From the IMG/VR virus record IMGVR_UViG_2681813233_000007: a DNA stretch of 64,000 nt; one strand, given 5' to 3'. A model generated the notes under the pieces. It was given only the letters and a program-made list of their open reading frames with translations, had not been told where the DNA came from and did not search any database. This stretch comes from a virus (taxonomy: Duplodnaviria > Heunggongvirae > Uroviricota > Caudoviricetes). The position numbers were made by a program, and so were the translations under genes. This document shows, piece after piece, positions 1 to 12,162 of the stretch (positions are counted from its first letter, which is position 1; every line of letters begins with the position of its first letter).

Positions 1-239
1 GCGCCGTTTCCGTTGTGGTAATTGCGGCTATGCGCTCGTGACGAAGCCATTTTCATTCACTACGTTCTGATAAGTGACGTCGCCGGGAGTGGCTAACCTG
101 GCAGGTGGAGGCACCACCGCCACAACTCCTCTCAATTCATCATATAGCCGCTCAGGCTGTACCTCTTAATTAATACGAAGTTACGACATCACTACCGGTA
201 CTTCCGGGGGATAGTCGCGCGTGTAAAAAAGGAGACGTT

Positions 240-815
240 ATGTTAATGGCGAACGATAACGCATATGCAGAAGAAGATCTCATTTTGAGTGACTTCATAG
301 GGAAGCGGGAACGCTGGACCCAAAAGCGAGAGGAACTTTACGCCTCATTAGTTCGCAAAGGCGTCAATATCGAAACCGCACAGAGCGGCGATATGACAGT
401 GGTAAGCGTTGGATTGCACGGTGTAAGCGTGTCAGCAATCAATCATGAGCCATACGTTGCGTTATCCGAGTCAATGGTAAGGTTAGTTAAGTTCCTGAAG
501 TACACAGAAGCGAATAATGTAATCATTGGCAAAAAGAATATCCCTTTTTCCTCGGCTTTTTACTGGATGATGAAAGGGCTTGATGCCCGGCGGACATCAT
601 GGCCTAAAGGGAGCTATATATCGATGTTCCGTGGCAGCATTGGCAGCAAAGAAAAGCTCTTCGAATTCTTGCCGGAAGAGGCATTCGATATTGTGGAAGG
701 GTGCGATGTGATGGTGATGCCTCGCCTGGTAATGATGAATGGGGATTTACAGGCGCAGACAGACTGGTTTGCAACTGGTGTGGATATTATCGCGACTGAC
801 TGGGAGGCTTTCTGA
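240..815 (+). CDS. hypothetical protein with C-terminal DUF2829-like (Tad2-like) domain
   Basis: ORF track; AAGGAG RBS before ATG; C-terminal motifs FYWMMKGLDARRTSWPKG ... IIATDWEAF shared with 8462..9163 and 24787..25728. Confidence 0.55.
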   Translation: MLMANDNAYAEEDLILSDFIGKRERWTQKREELYASLVRKGVNIETAQSGDMTVVSVGLHGVSVSAINHEPYVALSESMVRLVKFLKYTEANNVIIGKKNIPFSSAFYWMMKGLDARRTSWPKGSYISMFRGSIGSKEKLFEFLPEEAFDIVEGCDVMVMPRLVMMNGDLQAQTDWFATGVDIIATDWEAF

Positions 816-1207
816 TGTACGGGACTACCAAATTAAGCACTCAACAGGCCACCAATATGGAGTGGTCTATCGCTAACTGTAAGATCGTGTCATGCAATGC
901 CACGCGTACTGATGTGGGCCATAAAAGCACTATAACAGGCTATCTAGTAATGACCACCAGGGGGATGAGGGTTAGATTTCGCTGGAAAGCAGAGCAAGTA
1001 ACGCCATTCAGAGAGCCATCAATGCCGCTGCAGGTTGAGCAGGATTATCTATGTTTACCAGAAATAGATGGAGGAATGCTGGTGGAGTCTGATGGTAGTA
1101 AGGCTGATTTTGAAGCCAATTTGAAGCTGGCACAGGCCGTAATCAATAGTTATCGCGGAAAGTGGATCGCAAAAGTGAAACATGTTGTTCGTTTGTCTCG
1201 CTGGTAG
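815..1207 (+). CDS. hypothetical protein
   Basis: ORF track; start overlaps upstream stop by 1 nt (translational coupling). Confidence 0.5.
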   Translation: MYGTTKLSTQQATNMEWSIANCKIVSCNATRTDVGHKSTITGYLVMTTRGMRVRFRWKAEQVTPFREPSMPLQVEQDYLCLPEIDGGMLVESDGSKADFEANLKLAQAVINSYRGKWIAKVKHVVRLSRW

Positions 1208-1315
1208 CGTTAGATATTTAATATTAATTTTCTAATATAATCATCTTTTTACCAGTCTATACAGTTTTAACATTCTCATTATCATCCCCTCGGTCATTTC
1301 CTGCCCGGGGGATTA

Positions 1316-1708
1316 ATGGAACAAATCAGCAGCGCAGAAATTGCGGATATCATGATCAGGGCTGACTGCTATCTGACAGTCACTGAAATTACCACTCTCG
1401 CCAAAGAAAAATACCCTCATCTCCATGTTTCACGAGTAAGTGTAACTAACATCATTCGTCATTTTGTTCGTTCAAGCAGGGCAATCTGTGAGCTGGATGA
1501 TCGTGTGTATCCACGAAAATACTGGCTACATGGTCTGAACGGATATCAGTTCAAGGTGCGCGGGCGCACGCCTGAATACGGTAGCTTACTGGTTAAAAAC
1601 TGTAGCAGGAAATCAGTCGAACAGGCGCGAAAAGAGCAACGAGAGCTGGTGGACATGGCGAATAAGCTGTGGAATGCCGCCGTTAAAAAGCGTGGTGTTG
1701 CTTTATGA
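1316..1708 (+). CDS. hypothetical protein immediately upstream of pacA
   Basis: ORF track; stop overlaps pacA start. Confidence 0.5.
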   Translation: MEQISSAEIADIMIRADCYLTVTEITTLAKEKYPHLHVSRVSVTNIIRHFVRSSRAICELDDRVYPRKYWLHGLNGYQFKVRGRTPEYGSLLVKNCSRKSVEQARKEQRELVDMANKLWNAAVKKRGVAL

Positions 1709-3069
1709 GTCTGGTTAATTGGGAGGAGCACCGCGCCCGCTTTATAGCGTTGCGTGAAGAAAAAGGGATCACTGTAAAGGAATACTGTGAGGAGCATGGC
1801 CTTAGCTTCAATACAGCCAGAAAGCATCTCAATATGAAAAAAAATGAGGTGCGGTCGCAGGTAAAGACAACAAAAAAAAGCACCAAATCACCTGAAAAAA
1901 AACGGGCGGGAAGAGCAACAAAAAAGCTGGAAGAGGGCGCAGAAAAAACAAAATTTACAGAAATTGACAATTCGCAGGGTGCAGGTTCTTTCCGAAGTAT
2001 GCCAAGAAAGAAAACTCCGGATCATGAAAGTAATACCAATAATAACAATGAGATAAAAGAATCTGTCAGGAGATCATTGCGCGAAAAAATGGCGAAAATG
2101 ATCCCCGAAGAAGATAAAAGCGCCCCAAAAATTGAGGGATCTTCAGCAATGATCCCTGGCGGTGCTGTGCAACGTGCCACATTGCCCACTACGAATGTGG
2201 CTCGCGACATGATGAAGAACGGCGCAGAAGAACACCTGCGGTTAGCAATTCAAATGGCGCAAGAGCGCGCACTTCAGTATCAAAGCATTGTTGATCAGGA
2301 GGCCGAACGTCTACAGGCGGAAATAGACGCCTTGGGCGATAAAGAGCCAGAAGGAATGCACCCTGGGCAGCGCCTTCTCGGTCTAATCAGTGACGCGGCC
2401 TACTACATGAATGATTTTATCAGTAGGTTGGCAGCTATATATCAGTCCGAACAAAAGCTGCGACAGGGGGATGAAAAGCTTCGTCAGAGCGCTCGCCAGC
2501 AAGCATTCAAAGAGGCTGAGGCCAGAGAAAAACTCGAATTAGCACGCCTACAGGCCGAACAGCGTGGCAAAGAGATTGAATATCGCATTGGCGCTGACGC
2601 ACGCGCAGCCAGAGTTATCGCCGCCGCTATACGTATGCGTGAGCGCGAGGAACTGGATGATATCGGTGTTGCTGAATACATCGAGCGCCAGGGGGTCAGC
2701 GTCCCGGCTATCCTCGCGGCGCGCGCGGCGAAAGCTATCACTCTTCTCGAACCACCTGTTTCTGACGTCAATGATGTTGATGATGAACAGCTGGACAAAG
2801 AGGCAAGGGAGTTTGCGACGCTTCAGGCTAACCATCCGCAATGGCTGGCAGAGCGCCGGGCGGATGTGGCAACCATTGTTGAAGAATTGGGGTGCGGAGA
2901 TTACGACCGCAATGGCGAGCGTAAAGCTGGAGAATTCGAGGCCAACGACGAAGAGCTGGATATTGACCCTTCGGCAACGGCTGAAATTTACGGTGATTAT
3001 GATGCATCTGATGCAGGGTATGACGCCGGAGATGATGATATCGCGATAGAACCGCCGGAGGATGATTAA
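1705..3069 (+). CDS. pacA: terminase small subunit PacA-like
   Basis: Position directly upstream of and overlapping the large terminase; N-terminal HTH-like region, long acidic C-terminal tail; internal GATC hexamer cluster typical of a P1-type pac site. Confidence 0.8.
   Translation: MSLVNWEEHRARFIALREEKGITVKEYCEEHGLSFNTARKHLNMKKNEVRSQVKTTKKSTKSPEKKRAGRATKKLEEGAEKTKFTEIDNSQGAGSFRSMPRKKTPDHESNTNNNNEIKESVRRSLREKMAKMIPEEDKSAPKIEGSSAMIPGGAVQRATLPTTNVARDMMKNGAEEHLRLAIQMAQERALQYQSIVDQEAERLQAEIDALGDKEPEGMHPGQRLLGLISDAAYYMNDFISRLAAIYQSEQKLRQGDEKLRQSARQQAFKEAEAREKLELARLQAEQRGKEIEYRIGADARAARVIAAAIRMREREELDDIGVAEYIERQGVSVPAILAARAAKAITLLEPPVSDVNDVDDEQLDKEAREFATLQANHPQWLAERRADVATIVEELGCGDYDRNGERKAGEFEANDEELDIDPSATAEIYGDYDASDAGYDAGDDDIAIEPPEDD
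2019..2155. other. candidate pac (packaging initiation) site: cluster of five GATC-containing hexamers inside pacA
   Basis: GGATCA 2019, AGATCA 2071, TGATCC 2099, GGATCT 2137, TGATCC 2150, plus TGATCA 2291; resembles the Dam-methylatable hexamer repeats of the P1 pac site. Confidence 0.4.
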
Positions 3070-4577
3070 TGGCTGGAGGGCGCAAGATTAAATGCGTCAC
3101 CAGCGATCCACGCTGGCGCGATATGGTAATCAAATACCGCTACAACTTTACCCAGGCTGTTGTCGATATTTTTGGGATGTTCCCCTCCCACCAGCAGCAG
3201 CAGATCATTCAGTCCGTGCAGGAAACGGGGAGTAGGACGACCGTCACGTCCGGACACGGAACGGGGAAGTCGTCCCTTACCGCGATGTTGCTGTTGATTT
3301 TCATGATCCTGTTCCCCGATGCCCGTGTCATCATTGTTGCTAACAAGATAGGCCAGGTAAAAACAGGCGTATTCAAATACGTTAAACAGTATTGGGCGAA
3401 TGCAGTTAAGCGTCATGGGTGGTTGCAGACCTATTTTGTCCTCTCTGACACCATGTTTTATGAGCGCTCCCGTAAGGGGATTTGGGAAGTTCTCTGCAAA
3501 GGTTATCGACTCGGCAACGAAGAAGCGCTGGCGGGGGAACACGCGGCACATTTGCTTCTAATTCTGGATGAAGCATCTGGTATATCTGATAAGGCGATCG
3601 GCGTAATGACCGGTGCTCTTACTGAAGAAGATAACCGGATGTTGATGCTATCCCAGCCAACAAGGCCAAGTGGTTATTTTTACGATTCGCACCATTCTCA
3701 AGCAAAAACCCCAGACAACCCGAAAGGGATCTGGACAGCAATTGTTCTTAACTCGGAAGAATCACCGTTCGTCACACCACAATTCATCAAGCAGAAGCTT
3801 CTGGAATATGGGGGGCGCGATTCTATTGAGTACATGGTCAAGGTGCTTGGTCAGTTCCCACGAGAAATTAACGGCTATTTGCTTGGTCGTGATGAATGCG
3901 ATCGCGCTGCTCGCCGCAAGGTGCTGTTGGAGAAAAACTGGGGATGGGTGGCAACGGCTGACGTTGGTAATGGGCGAGATAAGTCGGTCCTCAACATCTG
4001 CAAGGTATCTGGTCACAGGGATAAGCGGCGCGTTGTTAACTTTAAGGTAATGGAGATGCCTGGCACTATGGACCCATTGGCCTTTGCTGACTTCATATAT
4101 AACGAATGTACGCCGGAAAAATACCCGAATATAACAATCGCGGTTGATGCTGATGGTTTTGGTTCTGATACGTGTGCGCAGTTGGTGCGTCGTGGTGCGA
4201 ACCCGGTACGTATTCGGTGGGGAAAACCCATGTTTGCGAACAAAGACAGGGAGCGATTTGTTAATCAGCGTGCCTACGCAAATATTATGGCGCGAGATGC
4301 CATAAAGTCAGGGCGTATGCGGATAGACAGTGACCCTAAAACGGCAGAGCAAGCGTCAAAAATCCCCTTTTTACTGAATGAAGAAGGGAAAATGGCGATG
4401 ATGCGCAAAGAGCACATGCGGCAAAAGCTAAACATCAAATCGCCTGACCGATGGGATACCTACTGCTTCACTATGCTGGTGGACTATGTGCCTGCTAATG
4501 AAGATATTGGTGCCGAAATGGCAACTTTCCGAGATCAGGTTCTGGCGGATATCGAAATGCCGGATCTGGATATATAA
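3069..4577 (+). CDS. pacB: terminase large subunit PacB-like
   Basis: Walker A SGHGTGKS, Walker B LLLILDEA, C-terminal nuclease-like region; coupled to pacA. Confidence 0.9.
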   Translation: MAGGRKIKCVTSDPRWRDMVIKYRYNFTQAVVDIFGMFPSHQQQQIIQSVQETGSRTTVTSGHGTGKSSLTAMLLLIFMILFPDARVIIVANKIGQVKTGVFKYVKQYWANAVKRHGWLQTYFVLSDTMFYERSRKGIWEVLCKGYRLGNEEALAGEHAAHLLLILDEASGISDKAIGVMTGALTEEDNRMLMLSQPTRPSGYFYDSHHSQAKTPDNPKGIWTAIVLNSEESPFVTPQFIKQKLLEYGGRDSIEYMVKVLGQFPREINGYLLGRDECDRAARRKVLLEKNWGWVATADVGNGRDKSVLNICKVSGHRDKRRVVNFKVMEMPGTMDPLAFADFIYNECTPEKYPNITIAVDADGFGSDTCAQLVRRGANPVRIRWGKPMFANKDRERFVNQRAYANIMARDAIKSGRMRIDSDPKTAEQASKIPFLLNEEGKMAMMRKEHMRQKLNIKSPDRWDTYCFTMLVDYVPANEDIGAEMATFRDQVLADIEMPDLDI

Positions 4578-4604
4578 AGCCCCGCGATGCGGGGCCGGTT
4601 GTGA

Positions 4605-5642
4605 TTACCAGAGCTTCGCGGCGTACTGCGTTTGGGGGAATGTGTATCCGTAACGTTCTTCGATTGCTTTGCCGTATTTTTTACGAGCTTCATTCAGTTT
4701 AATGCCGGTCAGGTCGTCTCCAGAGGCCATCATTACGTCTAACAATTCCAGATCCATTTTATCCAGCCTTGCCATTGCTTCACGTGATGTACGTATCTTA
4801 CGTTCAATGATATGGCGAATAGCCGGATCGGCATCCTCCAGCATCTTAGCGGATTTCTGCTTAAGGCTTTCATTGCGAATATCGATGTTCCTTAAGATGT
4901 ACGACTTCGCAACGTAGCTTGGCTGGTGTTTTTCCAGGTCACGAACACGATATAAGTTAAAATCGCCGAGAAGGCTGCAAGGTACCGATTCGACGCCAGA
5001 ATAAATTGTAATGCTCCGGCGTTCACCAACATTATTGACAACGGGGATCGTTGTCTTCGGTAGTCTTGCGAAAACCAATGCGCCATGTGCGCCAACTCTA
5101 AAGCGAGAAAGGGCATTGCTGCCTTCGATGTTTGTTGTCAGCACAACATCTGTATATGCCTCTTTACGCGCCCGGTAGATCTCGCCTTCAGGCTCAGCTT
5201 CAAAGAAGCGCTGTTCTTCTTCAAGAGCACCTACGATTTGAGAAAAAACCCTATTTTTCAGGCTTTTCTTTATGATTTTGTCGTATTTTTTTAGCAATTG
5301 TTCACGTGTAAATGTACGTGTTGTTGTAGCGCTTTGCACAACGACATGCGTGCTTTGATTGGTGTCCTCAATGATGAATGGGATCGGAGAATATACAGAC
5401 TCAACAATGTTCGACGCTTTGCCGTCGGCATCGCGGCACATGTCAACGAAGGCTTTCCATTCAGCAAGACATTTTTCAGCTTCTTCTAATATGTTTTGGT
5501 CATGCGTTAATGCAACATGGCGGAATTCCTCGCCAGCATAACTGGTATCATGGAAAACAGAGTTTGCGACCACCAGCTCTTTCCACCGTTCAGCGGTTTG
5601 CAGGAACCGTTTGTACTCTTTCTCGATCGACTTCTTACTCAT
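4605..5642 (-). CDS. hypothetical protein in the c1 position (candidate immunity repressor)
   Basis: Divergent from the recombinase gene, between pacB and the rox site as c1 is in P1; operator-like box TTTTCTAACA 20 bp upstream of its start; no sequence-level confirmation. Confidence 0.4.
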   Translation of the reverse strand: MSKKSIEKEYKRFLQTAERWKELVVANSVFHDTSYAGEEFRHVALTHDQNILEEAEKCLAEWKAFVDMCRDADGKASNIVESVYSPIPFIIEDTNQSTHVVVQSATTTRTFTREQLLKKYDKIIKKSLKNRVFSQIVGALEEEQRFFEAEPEGEIYRARKEAYTDVVLTTNIEGSNALSRFRVGAHGALVFARLPKTTIPVVNNVGERRSITIYSGVESVPCSLLGDFNLYRVRDLEKHQPSYVAKSYILRNIDIRNESLKQKSAKMLEDADPAIRHIIERKIRTSREAMARLDKMDLELLDVMMASGDDLTGIKLNEARKKYGKAIEERYGYTFPQTQYAAKLW

Positions 5643-5852
5643 TATTCCTACTCGATTTAGTTTTCTAACATAAAATTACTATGACAAATTTATGTCGAAT
5701 AACAGAGTGAGTAAAGGATCGAACTGTGATTTTTTGTCATCAATTTTAGAAAACCAACCGTAGAAACCACACTTCGCAAATTAAAGACCATGAAGGCAAC
5801 GTGTTACTGGTCATCATCAATCTATGATGGATTTAAAAAAATCGGCATTTTA

Positions 5853-5884
5853 TAACTTTAAATAATTGGCATTATTTAAAGTTA
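5853..5884. other. rox-type recombination target site (14-bp inverted repeats, 4-bp spacer)
   Basis: TAACTTTAAATAAT-TGGC-ATTATTTAAAGTTA; perfect 14-bp inverted repeats; reverse complement equals the rox sequence as I recall it; lies about 150 bp upstream of the recombinase gene. Confidence 0.85.
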
Positions 5885-6036
5885 GGCTATAATCATGTGT
5901 AGATGAACAGTGTTGACATCACTGAAAATACGTGCCTCGAATCAAAGGCTTGTATTTTGAAAATTAACTTATAGCTACCCTGTCATTTTTATATTTTTCG
6001 CGTAGCGTCATCTGTATATAGAGGTGTAATAGTTTC

Positions 6037-7065
6037 ATGAGTGAATTAATTATCTCTGGCAGTTCCGGTGGTTTTCTGCGCAACATTGGCAAAGAGTACC
6101 AGGAAGCCGCAGAAAACTTTATGCGGTTCATGAATGACCAGGGGGCTTATGCGCCGAATACTCTGCGCGACCTCCGGTTGGTGTTTCATTCCTGGGCGCG
6201 CTGGTGTCACGCTCGCCAGCTTGCCTGGTTTCCGATCTCACCAGAAATGGCCCGCGAGTATTTTCTTCAGCTGCATGATGCCGATCTGGCTTCGACCACC
6301 ATTGATAAGCACTACGCCATGCTGAACATGCTGCTTTCGCATTGTGGCCTTCCGCCACTTTCGGATGATAAAAGTGTTTCTCTGGCTATGCGGCGCATCC
6401 GGCGCGAAGCGGCAACTGAAAAAGGCGAACGAACAGGCCAGGCTATACCGCTTCGGTGGGACGATCTGAAACTGCTCGACGTCCTGTTGTCCAGGTCAGA
6501 ACGGCTGGTGGACCTGCGCAACCTGGCTTTTCTCTTTGTTGCATACAATACGCTGATGCGTATGTCGGAAATATCGCGTATTCGTGTAGGTGATCTGGAC
6601 CAAACAGGTGACACTGTCACGCTACATATTTCACACACGAAGACAATAACGACCGCCGCCGGGCTTGATAAGGTGCTTTCCCGTCGCACTACCGCTGTGC
6701 TGAATGACTGGCTGGATGTTTCCGGGCTTCGCGAGCATCCTGACGCTGTGCTGTTCCCGCCGATACACCGTAGCAATAAGGCCAGGATCACGATAACGCC
6801 CCTTACTGCACCTGCAATGGAGAAAATATTCAGCGACGCCTGGGTGTTGCTGAATAAAAGAGATGCTACGCCAAACAAAGGAAGATACCGGACGTGGACC
6901 GGGCATAGTGCACGCGTCGGGGCCGCTATTGATATGGCTGAAAAGCAGGTGTCTATGGTGGAGATCATGCAGGAAGGAACCTGGAAGAAACCGGAAACAC
7001 TTATGCGGTATCTTCGCCGTGGCGGCGTGTCTGTGGGGGCTAATAGCCGCCTGATGGATTTGTAA
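6037..7065 (+). CDS. dre: Cre-family tyrosine recombinase (Dre-like)
   Basis: 342 aa; alignable to Cre along its length (e.g. NLAFL..AYNTL.R..EI.RIRV.D, W.GHSARVGAA.DMA, EIMQ.G.W); adjacent rox site. Confidence 0.9.
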   Translation: MSELIISGSSGGFLRNIGKEYQEAAENFMRFMNDQGAYAPNTLRDLRLVFHSWARWCHARQLAWFPISPEMAREYFLQLHDADLASTTIDKHYAMLNMLLSHCGLPPLSDDKSVSLAMRRIRREAATEKGERTGQAIPLRWDDLKLLDVLLSRSERLVDLRNLAFLFVAYNTLMRMSEISRIRVGDLDQTGDTVTLHISHTKTITTAAGLDKVLSRRTTAVLNDWLDVSGLREHPDAVLFPPIHRSNKARITITPLTAPAMEKIFSDAWVLLNKRDATPNKGRYRTWTGHSARVGAAIDMAEKQVSMVEIMQEGTWKKPETLMRYLRRGGVSVGANSRLMDL

Positions 7066-7138
7066 ATTAAATTTCTAACACATCTTTTTAGATTAACATC
7101 TTTGCTGTAAAGTACCCTCGCCTATTTAGGAGGGTGCT

Positions 7139-7483
7139 TTGCAGAGTCAAATCACGGAATCAAGACGCTTCAAGGTGGATGGTTACACCGTAACCTTCGC
7201 CGCTGGTGTTAAGAACAGTCATGCTGTCGTTGTGTTCGGCATCATGACCGGGCTTGAGGCCGTCCCTGTGTTTACCCTCGAAAAAAACTGGCGAAATCTG
7301 GAGGAAGCAGAAAGCTACGTCCGGAAAGTAACCATCATTGCCGCCGAAAAACTCCTGGCCCACTATCAGGAAAATTATCGCACTATGGTCGAGAAGATTA
7401 ATCTCGCTTTCACTCGCCCCACTACCGGCTTTATTGCACCGGATACTAATGCAGGTCGATATCCTGCAAGGGGGCGTCGGTGA
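7139..7483 (+). CDS. hypothetical protein
   Basis: ORF track; operator-like box ATTTCTAACA at 7080-7089 upstream. Confidence 0.5.
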   Translation: MQSQITESRRFKVDGYTVTFAAGVKNSHAVVVFGIMTGLEAVPVFTLEKNWRNLEEAESYVRKVTIIAAEKLLAHYQENYRTMVEKINLAFTRPTTGFIAPDTNAGRYPARGRR

Positions 7484-7956
7484 AAACTTATTACCCATCT
7501 CTGAATTGTTACCCGTCTTCCTATCCAGAATTATCCGGGAAGCTGTTAGCTCTATTAGCTAAAGCACCTACGGAATGGTTTAAGCCAGTCGTTATCAATC
7601 CACACTTCCTGGATTACGGAACTGTTCGCACTCGTAACGAACTCAAAAACCTACTGGCGCATGGATTCATTCGACACCGTGCCGGGAAAGGCTATCAGTT
7701 AGCGATTGCGCCAGAAGAGGCCGTGCGGCTATTCGCATATCGTGACAGCCAGACAAAAGCTCGGGTAATAGCTCAAATACTTCATAACGGCAGCACCTAT
7801 GCCCGCCAGTTTGGCGGCGACACGTCGCAGTTCTTGCGGGCGGTGCGATCGCTGGAGGAGCAAGGAGTTATTGAAAGTTCCTGTCTTCCTGTTCCTACCG
7901 TTCCACATATCAAACGTCGGGTTTACACCTTCACGCAGAGAGCTAAAAAACAATGA
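7480..7956 (+). CDS. hypothetical protein
   Basis: ORF track; overlapping stop/start with flanking genes. Confidence 0.5.
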   Translation: MKTYYPSLNCYPSSYPELSGKLLALLAKAPTEWFKPVVINPHFLDYGTVRTRNELKNLLAHGFIRHRAGKGYQLAIAPEEAVRLFAYRDSQTKARVIAQILHNGSTYARQFGGDTSQFLRAVRSLEEQGVIESSCLPVPTVPHIKRRVYTFTQRAKKQ

Positions 7957-8447
7957 TTTACGTAAAAGTGAAACGCCTACATCCGGCAGCAAAACTTCCA
8001 GCTTATGCCACCTCCGGATCGGCGGCGATGGATTTTGAGGCTGTTGAAATAAAACCATGCGTCGATAGCAATGGTGCAATTTCCTCAAGCTGGTGGGTGT
8101 ACACCGGACTGGCTATGGAGATCCCGCCCGGCTGGTGTCTGAAACTCTATCCGCGCTCCGGATTGGGCTGCAAAAAACATACTCGCCTGGCTAACTGCGT
8201 AGGAATTATCGACTCCGATTATCGCGGTGAAATCATGGCAAAACTGATTACTGATCCCGGCGGGGAAGGCGTTTGTCTCAAGCCTGGAATGGCTGTCATG
8301 CAAGGCATTTTTGAGCGTGTTGAACAAGTCTCACTAGTCGAGGTTGAGGAACTCAACGAAACGGAACGTGGTGCTGGTGGCTTTGGTAGCACATCGGAAG
8401 ACCACTTTGAAATCAAGCGCACACCGCTTCAGTACGCAAAGTTTTAA
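7953..8447 (+). CDS. dut: dUTPase (trimeric dUTP pyrophosphatase)
   Basis: Motifs PRSGLG, GIIDSDYRGEI, RGAGGFGSTS. Confidence 0.85.
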   Translation: MIYVKVKRLHPAAKLPAYATSGSAAMDFEAVEIKPCVDSNGAISSSWWVYTGLAMEIPPGWCLKLYPRSGLGCKKHTRLANCVGIIDSDYRGEIMAKLITDPGGEGVCLKPGMAVMQGIFERVEQVSLVEVEELNETERGAGGFGSTSEDHFEIKRTPLQYAKF

Positions 8448-8461
8448 GCAGAGGAAAGGCT

Positions 8462-9163
8462 ATGAATTACATGACAACGAAAGAGCTTTTTAAGTTCCTT
8501 CCCAAATACAAAGCTCACAAAAACGTTAGTGCATCGAAAATCAAAAATGTTGTTATTTTCGGAGTAACTGCTTCCCCACTTTGGGGCTGCATCGAACTCG
8601 TTGAACCAAAAGGGGCAACAGTTTGTGTTGACGCAATTTTTTTACAAAAACACCGACCAAAAACTGGCGGGTATCTGATCGTTTATGAAAACGGTTATCT
8701 GTTCTATGCCCCGGAGAAACCATTTGAGCAATGCTATGGCCTGGTTAACGACGCCTCCGAAAATGGGGTATCGCTCAGCATTGAAGGTCACAATGGGGTG
8801 ACATTCATTACAGCCAGGGACGTAACTATTTCTGCTGGCGGTATCGCTACTCTACAAGAAGAAATCGACCTTGAAGCAGCCGACTTTTCTGACGCGCTGA
8901 TGTGGCTGAAGGATGGCAAGAAAGTTGCTCGACGCGGGTGGAACGGCGAAAACCAATTCTGCTGGCTGGTTCCTGACAAACAGGGTGCTTCAAGACTAAC
9001 CCCTATAAAACATGCCGCAAACGGAGAGCTTGAAATCAATTTCGACTCTCCTCTTGCTCCTTATGGTGCGCATTTCGTTTTGAAAAATGCACAAGGTGTA
9101 GTTGTTCCATGGATGCCTTCTGTAGGTGACCTGCTGGCATGTGACTGGTTTGTAGTGGAGTGA
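8462..9163 (+). CDS. protein with C-terminal DUF2829-like (Tad2-like) domain
   Basis: C-terminal ALMWLKDGKKVARRGWNG ... DLLACDWFVVE; N-terminal ~140 aa of unknown function. Confidence 0.55.
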   Translation: MNYMTTKELFKFLPKYKAHKNVSASKIKNVVIFGVTASPLWGCIELVEPKGATVCVDAIFLQKHRPKTGGYLIVYENGYLFYAPEKPFEQCYGLVNDASENGVSLSIEGHNGVTFITARDVTISAGGIATLQEEIDLEAADFSDALMWLKDGKKVARRGWNGENQFCWLVPDKQGASRLTPIKHAANGELEINFDSPLAPYGAHFVLKNAQGVVVPWMPSVGDLLACDWFVVE

Positions 9164-9169
9164 TTTAAC

Positions 9170-9976
9170 GTGGAAAATACTAAAGCAATTCAATACCGCT
9201 TGCGTAATGGCCTGCTGGTGGCTGTTAACGCCGACATGTCACTGCCGTTTGACACGATTGAACGCACCATAATGACGTATCTCGGCTTTAATGAAGAACT
9301 GAATGAAGAGCATGGCGTAGCTATATGGAGTGATGCAGACAGCGGCGTTCGTCGTTACATCACCGCCAGGGGCAAAGACTACTCTCTGGAAGAACTGTTT
9401 GCCCTTGCGCAGTCTTTCGAATGTGTAGCATTAGACCTGTTTAATGATCCTGCTATAGCGCAACGACTTATACGCGAGCTTGGGCTATCCGTTACACCAA
9501 TTATCTTTAAAAATGGCAGCCTGACTGGCACATGGCGCGTAGAACGCATATCAAACTACCTTCCATATAACCGACAGTTAAATGGAGTAATCTCCGGCGT
9601 TAATCAGCCCGTAGCATGTGAAAATGTAAACCTGGTTGTCGCTGTTTTGGCAACCGCATGTCGTGTTATCGGTTTGGCTAAACAGGCATTTATTCATTTC
9701 CCAAATGGTGCAGAAGGTAGCGCAGAGATTATCGCGTGTGATTTCGAATTTACCTGGATGCTACGCGAATATCTGGACCAAACAGTATTCCGTGCCGAAG
9801 AACTGGATATGTATATCACGTCAACGATTCCAGACGATGTGCGAGCTGAAGCAATCGCTACAGCCAGGGCGAAATGCCGTGCGGCGATTGCAGAACAGGC
9901 CAAAGAAGAACAGTCCGATGAAGTCGCGGCAGATGTGGAGGCAGAGGTAGCGGAGGATGCTGATGCTGACGCCTAA
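9170..9976 (+). CDS. hypothetical protein with acidic C-terminal tail, coupled to terminase-like paralogue
   Basis: ORF track; C-terminus EEQSDEVAADVEAEVAEDADADA; 20-nt overlap with next gene. Confidence 0.5.
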   Translation: MENTKAIQYRLRNGLLVAVNADMSLPFDTIERTIMTYLGFNEELNEEHGVAIWSDADSGVRRYITARGKDYSLEELFALAQSFECVALDLFNDPAIAQRLIRELGLSVTPIIFKNGSLTGTWRVERISNYLPYNRQLNGVISGVNQPVACENVNLVVAVLATACRVIGLAKQAFIHFPNGAEGSAEIIACDFEFTWMLREYLDQTVFRAEELDMYITSTIPDDVRAEAIATARAKCRAAIAEQAKEEQSDEVAADVEAEVAEDADADA

Positions 9977-11063
9977 AAACATCACCGAATTACCAGAGTG
10001 GAGAGAGCTGGTAAGCAAATATAGCCATGACTGGGCATTAGCAGCAGAAGAGTTGATGGGTGTTAAGTTAACCCACCAGCAAAAGCTAATTGTTGAGGCG
10101 ATTCAACAAAAAGGTTCAGCAGTCAGCGTCACCACTCCTGAAGGGATAGGCCAAAAGACGGTTATCGCTATAATTAGTATTCTTTATACAATCCTGATGC
10201 CTGAGTCTAAAACGGTTATTGTTTCCCCAAAGTTCTATAATTGTCGCAGGCAAGTTATCCAATACATAAGTACGTATTGGGATAGAGTCAGTAACAGAAT
10301 CCCATTGCTGGGAGAATATTTTAAAGTCGATGGAAACGGCATCAATCATCGTTACCGGGAATATTGGGGCTGCGAAATTAAGCCATATCACCGAAATTAT
10401 GAGGAAGGTTTCGGTGGATATTATGCTGAACATCTTTTAATCATTGTTACGGAGGCGGCTCTTGCTGGCGATCGGCTATTCAGCATGTTAAGAGCATCGT
10501 TAGTAAGTGACGATTCACGTATACTTTTAATGTCCGCTCCTTCAGAGGAGGAGCATGGACACTTTTACGATTCCCATCATGGTCGTGCTAAATCAGAAGA
10601 AAATCCATGTGGTATTTATACAGCCATCAAGCTGAACGCAGAAGATACCCCCATTATTTCTCAAGGTTATCTTGATAACATTGCAGAAATATATGGTGGT
10701 AAAAACAGCGATTACTACCGTCGTATGATTCTTGGTGAGTTTCCTGGTATTAGGGAGGCTGTTCTTGAATCAGATATGCCGAAGACAATGCGCTTTTCGA
10801 TGCCTGATGGTAGTGAATGGATAATGCCATTACGAGTGATAGCCCGGCATCATGCACAGCACCACGCCAAAAAACATGGCGTTACAACATTGGAGTGGTT
10901 GAAATCGCACACCATTCCACTCTTCACTGCAGATCACAATGCTATCGTTGAGTGGGCAAAAACAATTCCGTGGGAGAATGTTGCTGAATACGCCCACATG
11001 CTAAAACCGCCGAAAGACAGGCAAGAAATTAGCTGGCTGACAGCAGAAAAAATCATTGAGTGA
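9957..11063 (+). CDS. terminase large-subunit ATPase-domain paralogue with degenerate Walker motifs
   Basis: Alignable to 3069..4577 over ~250 aa (HQQ..I, LLII, HGHFYDSHHGRAK vs SGYFYDSHHSQAK, YGG....Y.....LG.FP); Walker A lysine replaced (GIGQKT), Walker B D replaced (IIVTEA); no nuclease domain. Confidence 0.7.
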   Translation: MLMLTPKNITELPEWRELVSKYSHDWALAAEELMGVKLTHQQKLIVEAIQQKGSAVSVTTPEGIGQKTVIAIISILYTILMPESKTVIVSPKFYNCRRQVIQYISTYWDRVSNRIPLLGEYFKVDGNGINHRYREYWGCEIKPYHRNYEEGFGGYYAEHLLIIVTEAALAGDRLFSMLRASLVSDDSRILLMSAPSEEEHGHFYDSHHGRAKSEENPCGIYTAIKLNAEDTPIISQGYLDNIAEIYGGKNSDYYRRMILGEFPGIREAVLESDMPKTMRFSMPDGSEWIMPLRVIARHHAQHHAKKHGVTTLEWLKSHTIPLFTADHNAIVEWAKTIPWENVAEYAHMLKPPKDRQEISWLTAEKIIE

Positions 11064-11070
11064 TAGTAGG

Positions 11071-11100
11071 AAGCCCGCCTGGTTGAGCGGGCTTCTTTTC
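11071..11100. terminator. hairpin between convergent genes
   Basis: AAGCCCGC-loop-GCGGGCTT followed by CTTTTC. Confidence 0.45.
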
Positions 11101-11479
11101 AAATATTGGAACCATATAGTTCACGTAGTTTTTCCGCTACTGAAGATACGGGGATTTCACCAGTTGCAGCCCCCACCGCAAGTTCCACCAGCACGGGAGA
11201 ATCATATACCTGTATACCGTTACGGCGTAGAAATAGCAGCGCACTGTTTAGCGCGGTACGCTTATTGGCATCATTGAATATATGCCCTCTCGCAGTAGCC
11301 ACCAGGTAGGTTGCGGAGACTTCGAAAAGGTCGGTGATCTCTTCGTAGGCAACTCTGGCCTGAACTCTCCCGATAATGGCCTCTGCCCTACCCGGATCTG
11401 ACATTCCCGGCAGGCCGCCGTAGCGGCTTATATTCGCATCATGAAGCGCAATAAGTTCTTCCGGTGATATATGCCTCAT
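11099..11479 (-). CDS. doc: Doc toxin (Fic-fold kinase) of phd-doc addiction module
   Basis: 126 aa, near-identical to P1 Doc as recalled ([39 protein letters not shown]...). Confidence 0.95.
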
Positions 11480-11700
11480 TATCGGTTAACCAGTTCCTTG
11501 TTGGTGGAGTCCAGGGTGTCAAACAGGGATGCAAATTCAGCATCCAGCGCCGCCTTTTTGTAGGCTTCGAAAGTAGCCTTGCTGACAATTACTGCTGGTT
11601 CACGGCCTCTGCGGGTGATTTCAACCTCTTCCCCGGCTTCAACATTGTTGAGCAATTCAGAAAGGTTGCCGCGCGCGGTACGGAAGTTAATGGACTGCAT
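11479..11700 (-). CDS. phd: Phd antitoxin
   Basis: [15 protein letters not shown]...; start taken at third codon of the track ORF to match the 73-aa Phd; stop overlaps doc start. Confidence 0.9.
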
Positions 11701-11772
11701 AAACACCTCGTGTACTCGTTATGTGTACACAATCATAAACTTCACAGGCATAAAGCACCAGCACTTTGCAGC

Positions 11773-12162
11773 TTAAATGACCGGACAATCATCAAACTCC
11801 CCACTTCGGGCATCATTGATGACATGAGTGATCACACCAAAAACAGCATTACTACCCGTGTAACCATCGTCATCTACTGGTAACGCCTCTTTCTTCCCGG
11901 TGCTTAAATCCTCCAGGTGCTGGCGCGGATACTTTCGGTATCTCTTTATGCGATATTCACCCTCCATAGCGCACACAAGCAGCGAACCATCAACTGGAGT
12001 AAGCGAAGAATCAACCACCAGCAAAGCACCCTGCAATATTCCCTCACGGTGATGGCTGTCTGCCGCCCGCATGAAGTATGTCGCTGATGGATGCCTGATT
12101 AGTTGCTGATCAAGAGAAATTCTGCTTTCAACATAGTCCGCCGCAGGAGAAGGGAAGCCCAT
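11773..12162 (-). CDS. humD: UmuD'-like S24 peptidase-fold protein (HumD)
   Basis: 129 aa, LexA/UmuD C-terminal-domain-like; position just upstream of phd as in P1. Confidence 0.8.
   Translation of the reverse strand: MGFPSPAADYVESRISLDQQLIRHPSATYFMRAADSHHREGILQGALLVVDSSLTPVDGSLLVCAMEGEYRIKRYRKYPRQHLEDLSTGKKEALPVDDDGYTGSNAVFGVITHVINDARSGEFDDCPVI

Follow-up and report, generated by a model that had tools for sequence, protein, structure and literature searches.

Does a phage-plasmid with two proteins that share a C-terminal domain carry two sponges against immune signals, or has one fold been put to different uses? The question is raised by a 64,000-nucleotide (nt) stretch of Caudoviricetes DNA (IMG/VR record IMGVR_UViG_2681813233_000007; hereafter the window, meaning the whole stretch), which comes from a D6-group phage-plasmid of the P1 family. 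The gene under study, at 8462..9163 on the + strand, encodes a protein of 233 amino acids (aa), protein 1, and a second gene at 240..815 (+) encodes one of 191 aa, protein 2. Both are accessory genes whose products are predicted to end in the fold of Tad2, a sponge for nucleotide-derived immune signals. We favour an explanation in which protein 1 sequesters such signals and protein 2 is a paralogue with a remodelled pocket and, taken as a whole, we hold it to be rather likely.

Two proteins with a Tad2-like C-terminus

Both genes are open reading frames (ORFs) with a good Shine-Dalgarno sequence before the ATG (GAGGAAAGG for protein 1 at 8462, AAGGAG for protein 2 at 240), and protein 1 is 100% identical to NCBI cluster P0001. 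A first-pass annotation of the window had placed a DUF2829, or Tad2, domain at the C-terminus of protein 1 and a second copy in protein 2. The search against Pfam bears out both: residues 141-232 of protein 1 match PF11195, Tad2-like (formerly DUF2829), with 76.3 bits (E = 2.7e-21) and residues 103-190 of protein 2 with 39.1 bits (E = 1.1e-9), the gathering score of the family being 25 bits. The C-terminal motif that the two were said to share, D[LI][LI]A[CT]DW, is exact in both and occurs in no other of the 749 six-frame ORFs of the window (63,934 residues). The companion N-terminal motif fared less well: as written it fits neither protein, its register being off by one, and a form with a spacing tolerance of one residue either way fits these two ORFs alone. 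A hidden Markov model (HMM) of the protein 1 domain family (family 1), run against all window ORFs, recovered protein 2 at E = 1.4e-5 and no third Tad2-like copy, and hhalign aligned family 1 with the family of protein 2 (family 2) at E = 3e-5 over 80 columns. BLASTP finds no match between the two proteins, in keeping with the claim that their N-terminal regions are unrelated, and because the profile methods nevertheless connect them, the two copies are remote homologues and not a recent duplication.

The predicted structures of both proteins superpose on solved Tad2 proteins, as the first-pass annotation had expected. The AlphaFold2 model of protein 1 (mean predicted local distance difference test, pLDDT, 71.6) is confident in two domains, a Dec-like OB-fold and the Tad2-like domain, and low in the stalk, or linker, between them and in an insertion loop. 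Foldseek ranks 1-24 for this model are all Tad2 structures, with template modelling scores up to 0.89 relative to the target. Among Protein Data Bank (PDB) chains, ModTad2 (9eib) is the best match to protein 1 (1.6e-12), followed by SptTad2, HgmTad2/AcrIIA7 and SPO1 Gp34.65; phmmer with the Tad2 domain alone (residues 138-233; 8873..9160, +) reaches ModTad2 at 2e-13, and the family 1 profile matches PDB Tad2 chains down to 2e-25.

Two database labels on these relatives suggest quite different functions, namely that the proteins are anti-CRISPRs of the AcrIIA7 type or toxins of a type I toxin-antitoxin (TA) system. The first draws on the matches to AcrIIA7/HgmTad2 chains and on the label 'Inhibitor of Type II CRISPR-Cas system' in the PDB, and the second on a protein 2 relative (P0128) that NCBI calls 'MW1434 family type I TA system toxin'. 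The anti-Cas9 activity of HgmTad2/AcrIIA7 was, however, irreproducible and the protein has been reassigned as a sponge (10.1101/2023.11.15.567273). The MW1434 label goes back to a purely bioinformatic list and an 81-aa prophage protein without a toxicity test (PMC6266405), a scan of NCBIfam matched no model to protein 1 or protein 2, and proteins of 191-233 aa with a predicted globular, two-domain build are not small membrane peptides. Both ideas are already largely refuted by the literature, and we consider them very improbable.

The ligand pocket of Tad2 is well described. SPO1 Tad2 holds gcADPR with W25, N26, W73, S76, T78 and D79 (10.1101/2023.05.01.538930); the corresponding pocket of HgmTad2 is formed by W21/N22/G23 and W87/S90/T92/D93, and binding is abolished in its W21A/N22A and S90A/T92A/D93A mutants (10.1101/2023.11.15.567273). 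In HMMER and MAFFT alignments protein 1 retains five of the six SPO1 residues, as W160, N161, W217, S220 and D223. W160, W217, S220 and D223 are invariant in 36 relatives of protein 1, and N161 is kept in 31 of them, the other five having a lysine and a shorter loop. Judged by its sequence, protein 1 belongs to the Tad2 family proper and has the canonical pocket for signals derived from ADP-ribose (ADPR). Since five of the six pocket residues are kept, a sponge role is a reasonable reading of this sequence, and protein 1 probably functions as one.

The Tad2 domain of protein 1 would most likely assemble into a dimer of dimers through its alpha1 and beta2 surfaces, like the solved homotetramers, whose pockets lie between non-dimeric protomers, with an ADPR-derived signal held between two tryptophans of adjacent protomers. 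It would thereby sequester Thoeris-type signals (3'cADPR/gcADPR, His-ADPR or N7-cADPR), a second ligand possibly being bound through the hypervariable insertion loop, and sequestration would protect the phage-plasmid on infection or induction. The Tad2 family is functionally plastic, its members collectively inhibiting CBASS, Pycsar and Thoeris types I, II and IV (PMC12393519). ModTad2, the closest solved relative of protein 1, binds His-ADPR, and its second pocket binds cUMP and cCMP (PMC12393519). Given this plasticity, ligand specificity of protein 1 is not predictable from homology.

Several observations weigh against a sponge role. The position of SPO1 T78 is taken by G222 in protein 1. 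The cyclic-dinucleotide pocket of HgmTad2 (R31, S47, F70, N85) is not recognisable in protein 1, which has V, H, Y and a gap at these positions, in an alignment that is unreliable in the insertion loop, disordered in the model, so that a different second pocket is possible. Characterised Tad2 proteins are single-domain proteins of 89-158 aa, whereas both window proteins add an N-terminal domain of about 95-135 aa, and published conservation analyses of Tad2 took short versions only (10.1101/2023.11.15.567273). In protein 1 this N-terminal fusion joins directly onto helix alpha1, the tetramer-interface helix of solved Tad2. Stalks of the type found in the phage L protein Dec trimerise and the Tad2 pocket requires a tetramer, and a symmetry conflict in full-length protein 1 is thus possible. 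In favour of a sponge, an N-terminal extension is tolerated in one solved Tad2 fold, AcrIIA7 (9kzr), a 158-aa protein with the domain at residues 43-150.

Part of this assignment was available before. NCBI gives a protein identical to protein 1 the name 'DUF2829 domain-containing protein', UniRef lists one relative as 'Thoeris anti-defense Tad2 family protein', and according to a 2025 preprint DefenseFinder calls 'Tad2 AcrIIA7 (anti-Thoeris)' in 93% of the D6 phage-plasmids and 56% of the P1 ones (10.1101/2025.09.12.675607). The Tad2 call for protein 1 was therefore already known from the RefSeq name and the published survey, which the first-pass annotation did not note. The published P1/D6 Tad2 surveys mention no Dec-like module, no allelic series and no second paralogue. 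What is new here is the Dec-like fusion, the series of alleles with its loop mosaic, and the cryptic paralogue that is protein 2.

The N-terminal module and the alleles of protein 1

What precedes the Tad2 domain in protein 1? Residues ~13-95 (8498..8746, +) are modelled with a pLDDT of 85-92 as an OB-fold, with the core motif P..GGY..(6)..G...Y.....FE..Y, homologous to that of Dec from phage L. The family 1 profile matches Dec (6e3c) in the PDB at E = 8e-6, and a profile of the N-terminal 133 aa does so at E = 9.4e-7 over Dec residues 23-121. Dec is also Foldseek rank 25 for protein 1 (E = 2.7e-3, 28% identity, 82 columns), and the common core reads 'KPEVGGYLFRSQYGELLYMSKTAFEANY' in Dec and 'RPEVGGYLVVYEDGYLSYSPEKAFEEGY' in family 1. 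A profile was required for this match: a single-sequence phmmer search of the PDB with the N-terminus found neither Dec nor anything else. The beta-rich stalk or linker that follows (~aa 96-137; 8747..8872, +) has a pLDDT below 50 over aa 98-137 of the monomer model; part of it aligns with the beginning of the trimerising C-terminal tail of Dec, the profile alignment reaching Dec residues 90-121, though the linker is not conserved in distant relatives. In Dec itself the OB-fold spans residues 12-89; the tail, residues 90-134, has no fold in the monomer, makes up the spike of the trimer and is needed for attachment to the capsid (PMC11398494). Profile and model together argue that the N-terminus of protein 1 is a Dec-like OB-fold, a relationship that the first-pass annotation had overlooked.

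The same module occurs as stand-alone proteins of ~90 aa in unrelated phages (GP4 gp05, PCSE1, Bas106_0070), with another tail in the Pseudomonas phage protein Dolphis gp96, which carries the annotation 'capsid decoration protein', and as a Tad2 fusion in Klebsiella phage SopranoGao. The module mostly sits in early or DNA-metabolism regions; in GP4 it lies in a head module. A profile of the module run against a large database returned the same family and no new architectures. Trimerisation, capsid binding or mere avidity may each be what the module contributes.

Protein 1 might, then, be a virion-associated, Dec-like decoration protein whose OB-fold and stalk form a trimer on the capsid and whose Tad2 domain is displayed or carried there, with a role other than cytoplasmic sequestration or as a sponge delivered or concentrated via capsids. 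The Dec matches, which extend into the start of the spike, agree with this, as does a linker disordered in the monomer like the Dec tail, which folds only in trimers (PMC11398494). So do the annotation of Dolphis gp96 and, in the P1 group, the position of the gene beside the operon of Dar head-internal proteins. A stand-alone homologue in the head-gene module of Ralstonia phage GP4 is a further argument, but the matching protein is gp05 and not the cement protein resolved by cryo-electron microscopy, gp1, with which we do not equate it. In the D6 and P1 groups, as in most other carriers, the surrounding genes are non-structural (dut, ssb, regulators, helicase, MazG), the 90-aa stand-alone homologues are without the tail that Dec needs on capsids, and the linker is not conserved across family 1. 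No decoration protein is found on P1 virions, though P1 is without the gene anyway. Moreover, the infectious reference phage D6 deletes the OB-fold in frame and keeps the Tad2 part. A virion role appears unlikely on this evidence. A tail-fibre repeat fused to Tad2 (P0027) was discounted as support for it, the gene lying 19 nt from a contig edge with its OB-fold truncated.

The D6 deletion belongs to a series of alleles at this locus. In D6, orf114 (146 aa; L001 2594-3034) has lost exactly the OB-fold ('...KYKAHK|KNGTTV...'). The RefSeq note on orf114, which likens it to the C-terminal half of the SJ46 protein, masks this deletion. Six D6-like contigs have an in-frame fusion of dut with the Tad2 domain ('...ERGAGG|ITTQQEEIDLEAADF...'; P0059, 241 aa; L012 4001-4726), with loss of the OB-fold and of the last dUTPase motif. 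A dUTPase gene followed by a Tad2 gene is also seen in the SPO1-like Bacillus phage JL (gp136 and gp137, one base between them; L011 1918-2788). More distant relatives of protein 1 have an additional crAss001_48 domain (PF21825) at the C-terminus or carry other inserts. The Tad2 core is near-identical at the DNA level across the window, D6 and P0059 alleles. Because D6 deletes the OB-fold and P0059 replaces it with a dUTPase, with the Tad2 core kept in both, the OB-fold is dispensable or optional and it is the Tad2 domain that stays constant. The Dec-like OB-fold and stalk would accordingly be an optional add-on that the core function of Tad2 does not need.

Within the otherwise constant domain, one segment departs from this pattern. 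The insertion loop, from beta2 to the next core strand (~aa 172-202; 8975..9065, +; pLDDT below 50 for aa 174-198), is mosaic and wholly different from those of the SJ46, D6 and fusion alleles. Against SJ46, the window is identical at 208 of 210 positions over 8756-8965, which covers the stalk and Tad2 alpha1-beta2; identity falls to ~50% with a 24-nt indel over ~8975-9065, and is at least 90% thereafter. The loop thus looks like a recombination patch at the sequence level. The matching region forms second pockets in HgmTad2 and MoTad2 (10.1101/2023.11.15.567273, PMC12393519).

A further group of alleles (P0010, P0044, P0049, P0050 and P0052) has the pocket loop RRGWNGENQ changed to RREWKGEKQ (G159E and N161K, G159 being kept in P0049). 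In these alleles beta4 is also changed and the insertion loop is much shorter. Because of this group, the canonical pocket as well as the insertion loop must be said to vary among otherwise close alleles. The hypervariable loop and the G159E/N161K alleles are consistent with selection on specificity.

Protein 2, a divergent relative

Is protein 2 a second sponge? It is 100% identical to D6 orf6, a 'hypothetical protein', and occurs in at least 125 plasmid records; all 59 of the annotated ones listed call it hypothetical. An N-terminal domain (~aa 10-90; 267..509, +) of alpha-alpha-beta-beta-beta-alpha topology precedes the Tad2-like domain (~aa 100-191; 537..812, +), which ends in ATDW. An exhaustive HMMER search of 1.84 billion sequences gave 16 representatives of its family at E<=1e-3, several of them full-length two-domain proteins. 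W121, W176, R118, G113, D187 and W188 are invariant in this family and D182 is mostly kept; the lineage has motifs of its own in G132, 'GVP' and 'MPR'. When both families are aligned jointly with four solved Tad2 proteins, the positions of SPO1 W25, W73 and D79 are invariant throughout, protein 2 keeping them as W121, W176 and D182. The residue after W121, an asparagine in canonical Tad2, is P, R, M, N, D, G or H across family 2. The sequence thus points to a tiny divergent Tad2 subfamily, of which protein 2 would be a remote, separately evolving Tad2-fold paralogue.

The case for a sponge is here more strained. In protein 2 itself the position of N26 is a proline (P122) with a one-residue loop deletion, S76 is replaced by threonine (T179) and T78 by valine (V181). 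The family 2 profile reaches only SptTad2 in the PDB, at E = 0.55, and a single-sequence PDB search with protein 2 found nothing. The alignment behind the AlphaFold2 model of protein 2 included family 1 Tad2 domains, which makes its fold match not fully independent; the Pfam match is independent. Because the asparagine is replaced, and it is this residue that was mutated together with tryptophan in the binding-dead W21A/N22A form of HgmTad2, calling protein 2 a second sponge is speculative. On its sequence a sponge function is possible, yet on the doubtful side, and with its remodelled pocket protein 2 would, if it is one, bind a different ligand.

Protein 2, and possibly both proteins, may instead use the Tad2 fold otherwise, for a housekeeping nucleotide or a macromolecule, with the N-terminal domain contacting RNA or ribosomes. 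The missing pocket asparagine and the private motifs of protein 2 speak for this, as do the small size of the family and the position of the gene just upstream of lpa and pacAB, outside any anti-defence cluster. Protein 2 keeps, on the other hand, both ligand-sandwiching tryptophans, the aspartate and the terminal A.DW, and Tad2 homologues are able to retune their pockets to very different ligands (PMC12393519). The fold matches of the N-terminal domain are generic and weak, HPF/RaiA-like and similar to double-stranded RNA-binding domains (dsRBDs), and being non-specific these dsRBD and HPF-like matches were retained merely as a weak hint. We regard such another use as a minority possibility. 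Since one genome here encodes two proteins of the Tad2 fold whose pockets differ, the 'layered anti-signalling' of the first-pass annotation is still a fair hypothesis; the observation in that annotation is confirmed and its interpretation partly supported.

Genomic setting, significance and known systems

Does the setting of these genes agree with a defence-related role? The window is 99.3% identical to Escherichia phage D6 over 1-1300 and 97% identical over 83% of the length of 7400-10000, and an E. coli plasmid from cattle faeces (CP057047.1, 93 kb) carries the exact window alleles of protein 1 and protein 2. Gene order matches D6, beginning with orf6, orf5, lpa, pacA, pacB, a C1-like repressor and a Cre-like recombinase, and continuing with orf117, orf116, dut, the DUF2829 protein and an isaA-like gene, then doc/phd and humD. 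The dut gene that had been placed next to protein 1 is there (7953..8447, +; PF00692, E = 1.7e-14), ending 14 nt upstream. Directly downstream lies an IsaA-like gene (9170..9976, +), which constantly accompanies the Tad2-like gene in both the P1 and the D6 group (synteny in SJ46, Ro157c2YLVW, D6, L012 and L014). The protein 1 gene sits between dut and isaA in the window and between ssb and isaA in the P1 group, where the order is ssb, Tad2-like, isaA, hxr, ddrB, ddrA, darA (e.g., contig L014 19-5939). In that group the Tad2-like gene and isaA thus adjoin hxr-ddrB-ddrA-darA, the Dar anti-restriction operon, and make up an anti-defence neighbourhood with it. The Tad2-like gene is not present in P1 itself. 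Its absence from P1, the adjacent Dar operon in the P1 group, the mosaic loop and the several alleles together fit an accessory or anti-defence role.

P1 IsaA was considered as a homologue of protein 1 and rejected, since it is homologous to the downstream gene at 9170-9976 instead (48% identity). The SJ46 and D6 records likewise give the name isaA to the gene downstream of the Tad2-like gene. P1 IsaA (L009 4570-5532) is annotated with 320 aa, and similarity to the window protein begins only at residue 60, after an internal methionine; for this reason its annotated start is probably too far upstream.

Other features of the window lie around these genes. Three genes conserved in the D6 group, orf5, orf117 and orf116 (phrog_7004, phrog_1968 and phrog_6669; 815-1207 and 7139-7956, +), flank both Tad2-like genes. 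None of the three has a Pfam match, and their overlapping or abutting stop and start codons suggest co-transcription. At 9957-11063 (+) a 368-aa paralogue of the PacB/TerL ATPase domain is encoded (34% identity over 258 aa to the product of 3069-4577, E = 3e-52). Its Walker A motif is degraded from GHGTGKS to PEGIGQK and its Walker B motif changed from LILDEA to IIVTEA; it is without the nuclease domain and has a C-terminal region of its own of ~100 aa. It is not at this position in reference D6 and is present in other D6-like contigs. The protein may be a terminase that has lost catalysis, and might conceivably serve as a decoy. At the start of the window (7-128), stretches of 43-55 nt are 86-91% identical to DNA that bears no annotation and lies close to the genome ends of Klebsiella phages SopranoGao and vB_KpnP_ZX1, which also encode homologues of protein 1 or its N-terminal module. 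This segment is non-coding in the D6 annotation and has no Rfam or tRNA match, like the rest of 1-12000, where both scans gave none. The P1 C1-operator consensus had no match in the window at three or fewer mismatches, and a promoter scan was uninformative, with fewer hits than in shuffled sequence.

What would follow if these proteins are active? Tad2 sponges are central as a phage counter-measure to signalling immunity (Thoeris, CBASS, Pycsar), and clinical E. coli, Salmonella and Shigella commonly carry P1/D6 phage-plasmids. Active multi-domain alleles would form a natural series (OB-fold plus Tad2, OB-fold-deleted, dUTPase::Tad2, and loop-swapped or pocket-swapped variants) in which to see how the assembly and the specificity of a sponge respond to fusion partners and to loop swaps, and protein 2 might prove to be a sponge for a new ligand. 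Should both proteins be inactive, they would caution against equating DefenseFinder or Pfam 'Tad2' calls with function. A bolder combination, which we think quite improbable, has protein 1 as a sponge tethered to the capsid by its Dec-like OB-fold and stalk, and protein 2 as a new sponge subfamily for a signal without an assigned sponge. The tethered sponge would be carried on or in particles and pre-positioned at infection, or would build a trimer-by-tetramer lattice. Were either part true, the sponge concept would extend beyond free cytoplasmic homo-oligomers.

Set beside known systems, both window proteins share domain family and fold with SPO1 Gp34.65, ModTad2, HgmTad2/AcrIIA7 and SptTad2. 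Protein 1 further resembles these in its pocket residues (W-N and W..S..D), the terminal A.DW and the variable beta2-beta3 insertion, whereas protein 2 differs by the proline for asparagine, the one-residue deletion there and insertion motifs of its own. With Dec, protein 1 shares a homologous N-terminal OB-fold of ~85 aa, with the core 'PEVGGYL...G.L.Y.....FE..Y', followed by a segment disordered in the monomer. Dec, however, is a 134-aa capsid-binding trimer encoded with structural genes, whereas the module of protein 1 is fused to Tad2, lies among accessory genes (dut/isaA) and is deleted in reference D6, and the 90-aa stand-alone relatives of the module are without the spike that Dec needs for capsids. 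D6 orf114 and SJ46 gp048 are nearest of all, occupying the orthologous locus upstream of isaA with a Tad2 core near-identical at the DNA level; orf114 differs in being without the OB-fold, whereas the window allele has the full OB-fold and a distinct insertion loop that is eight residues longer.

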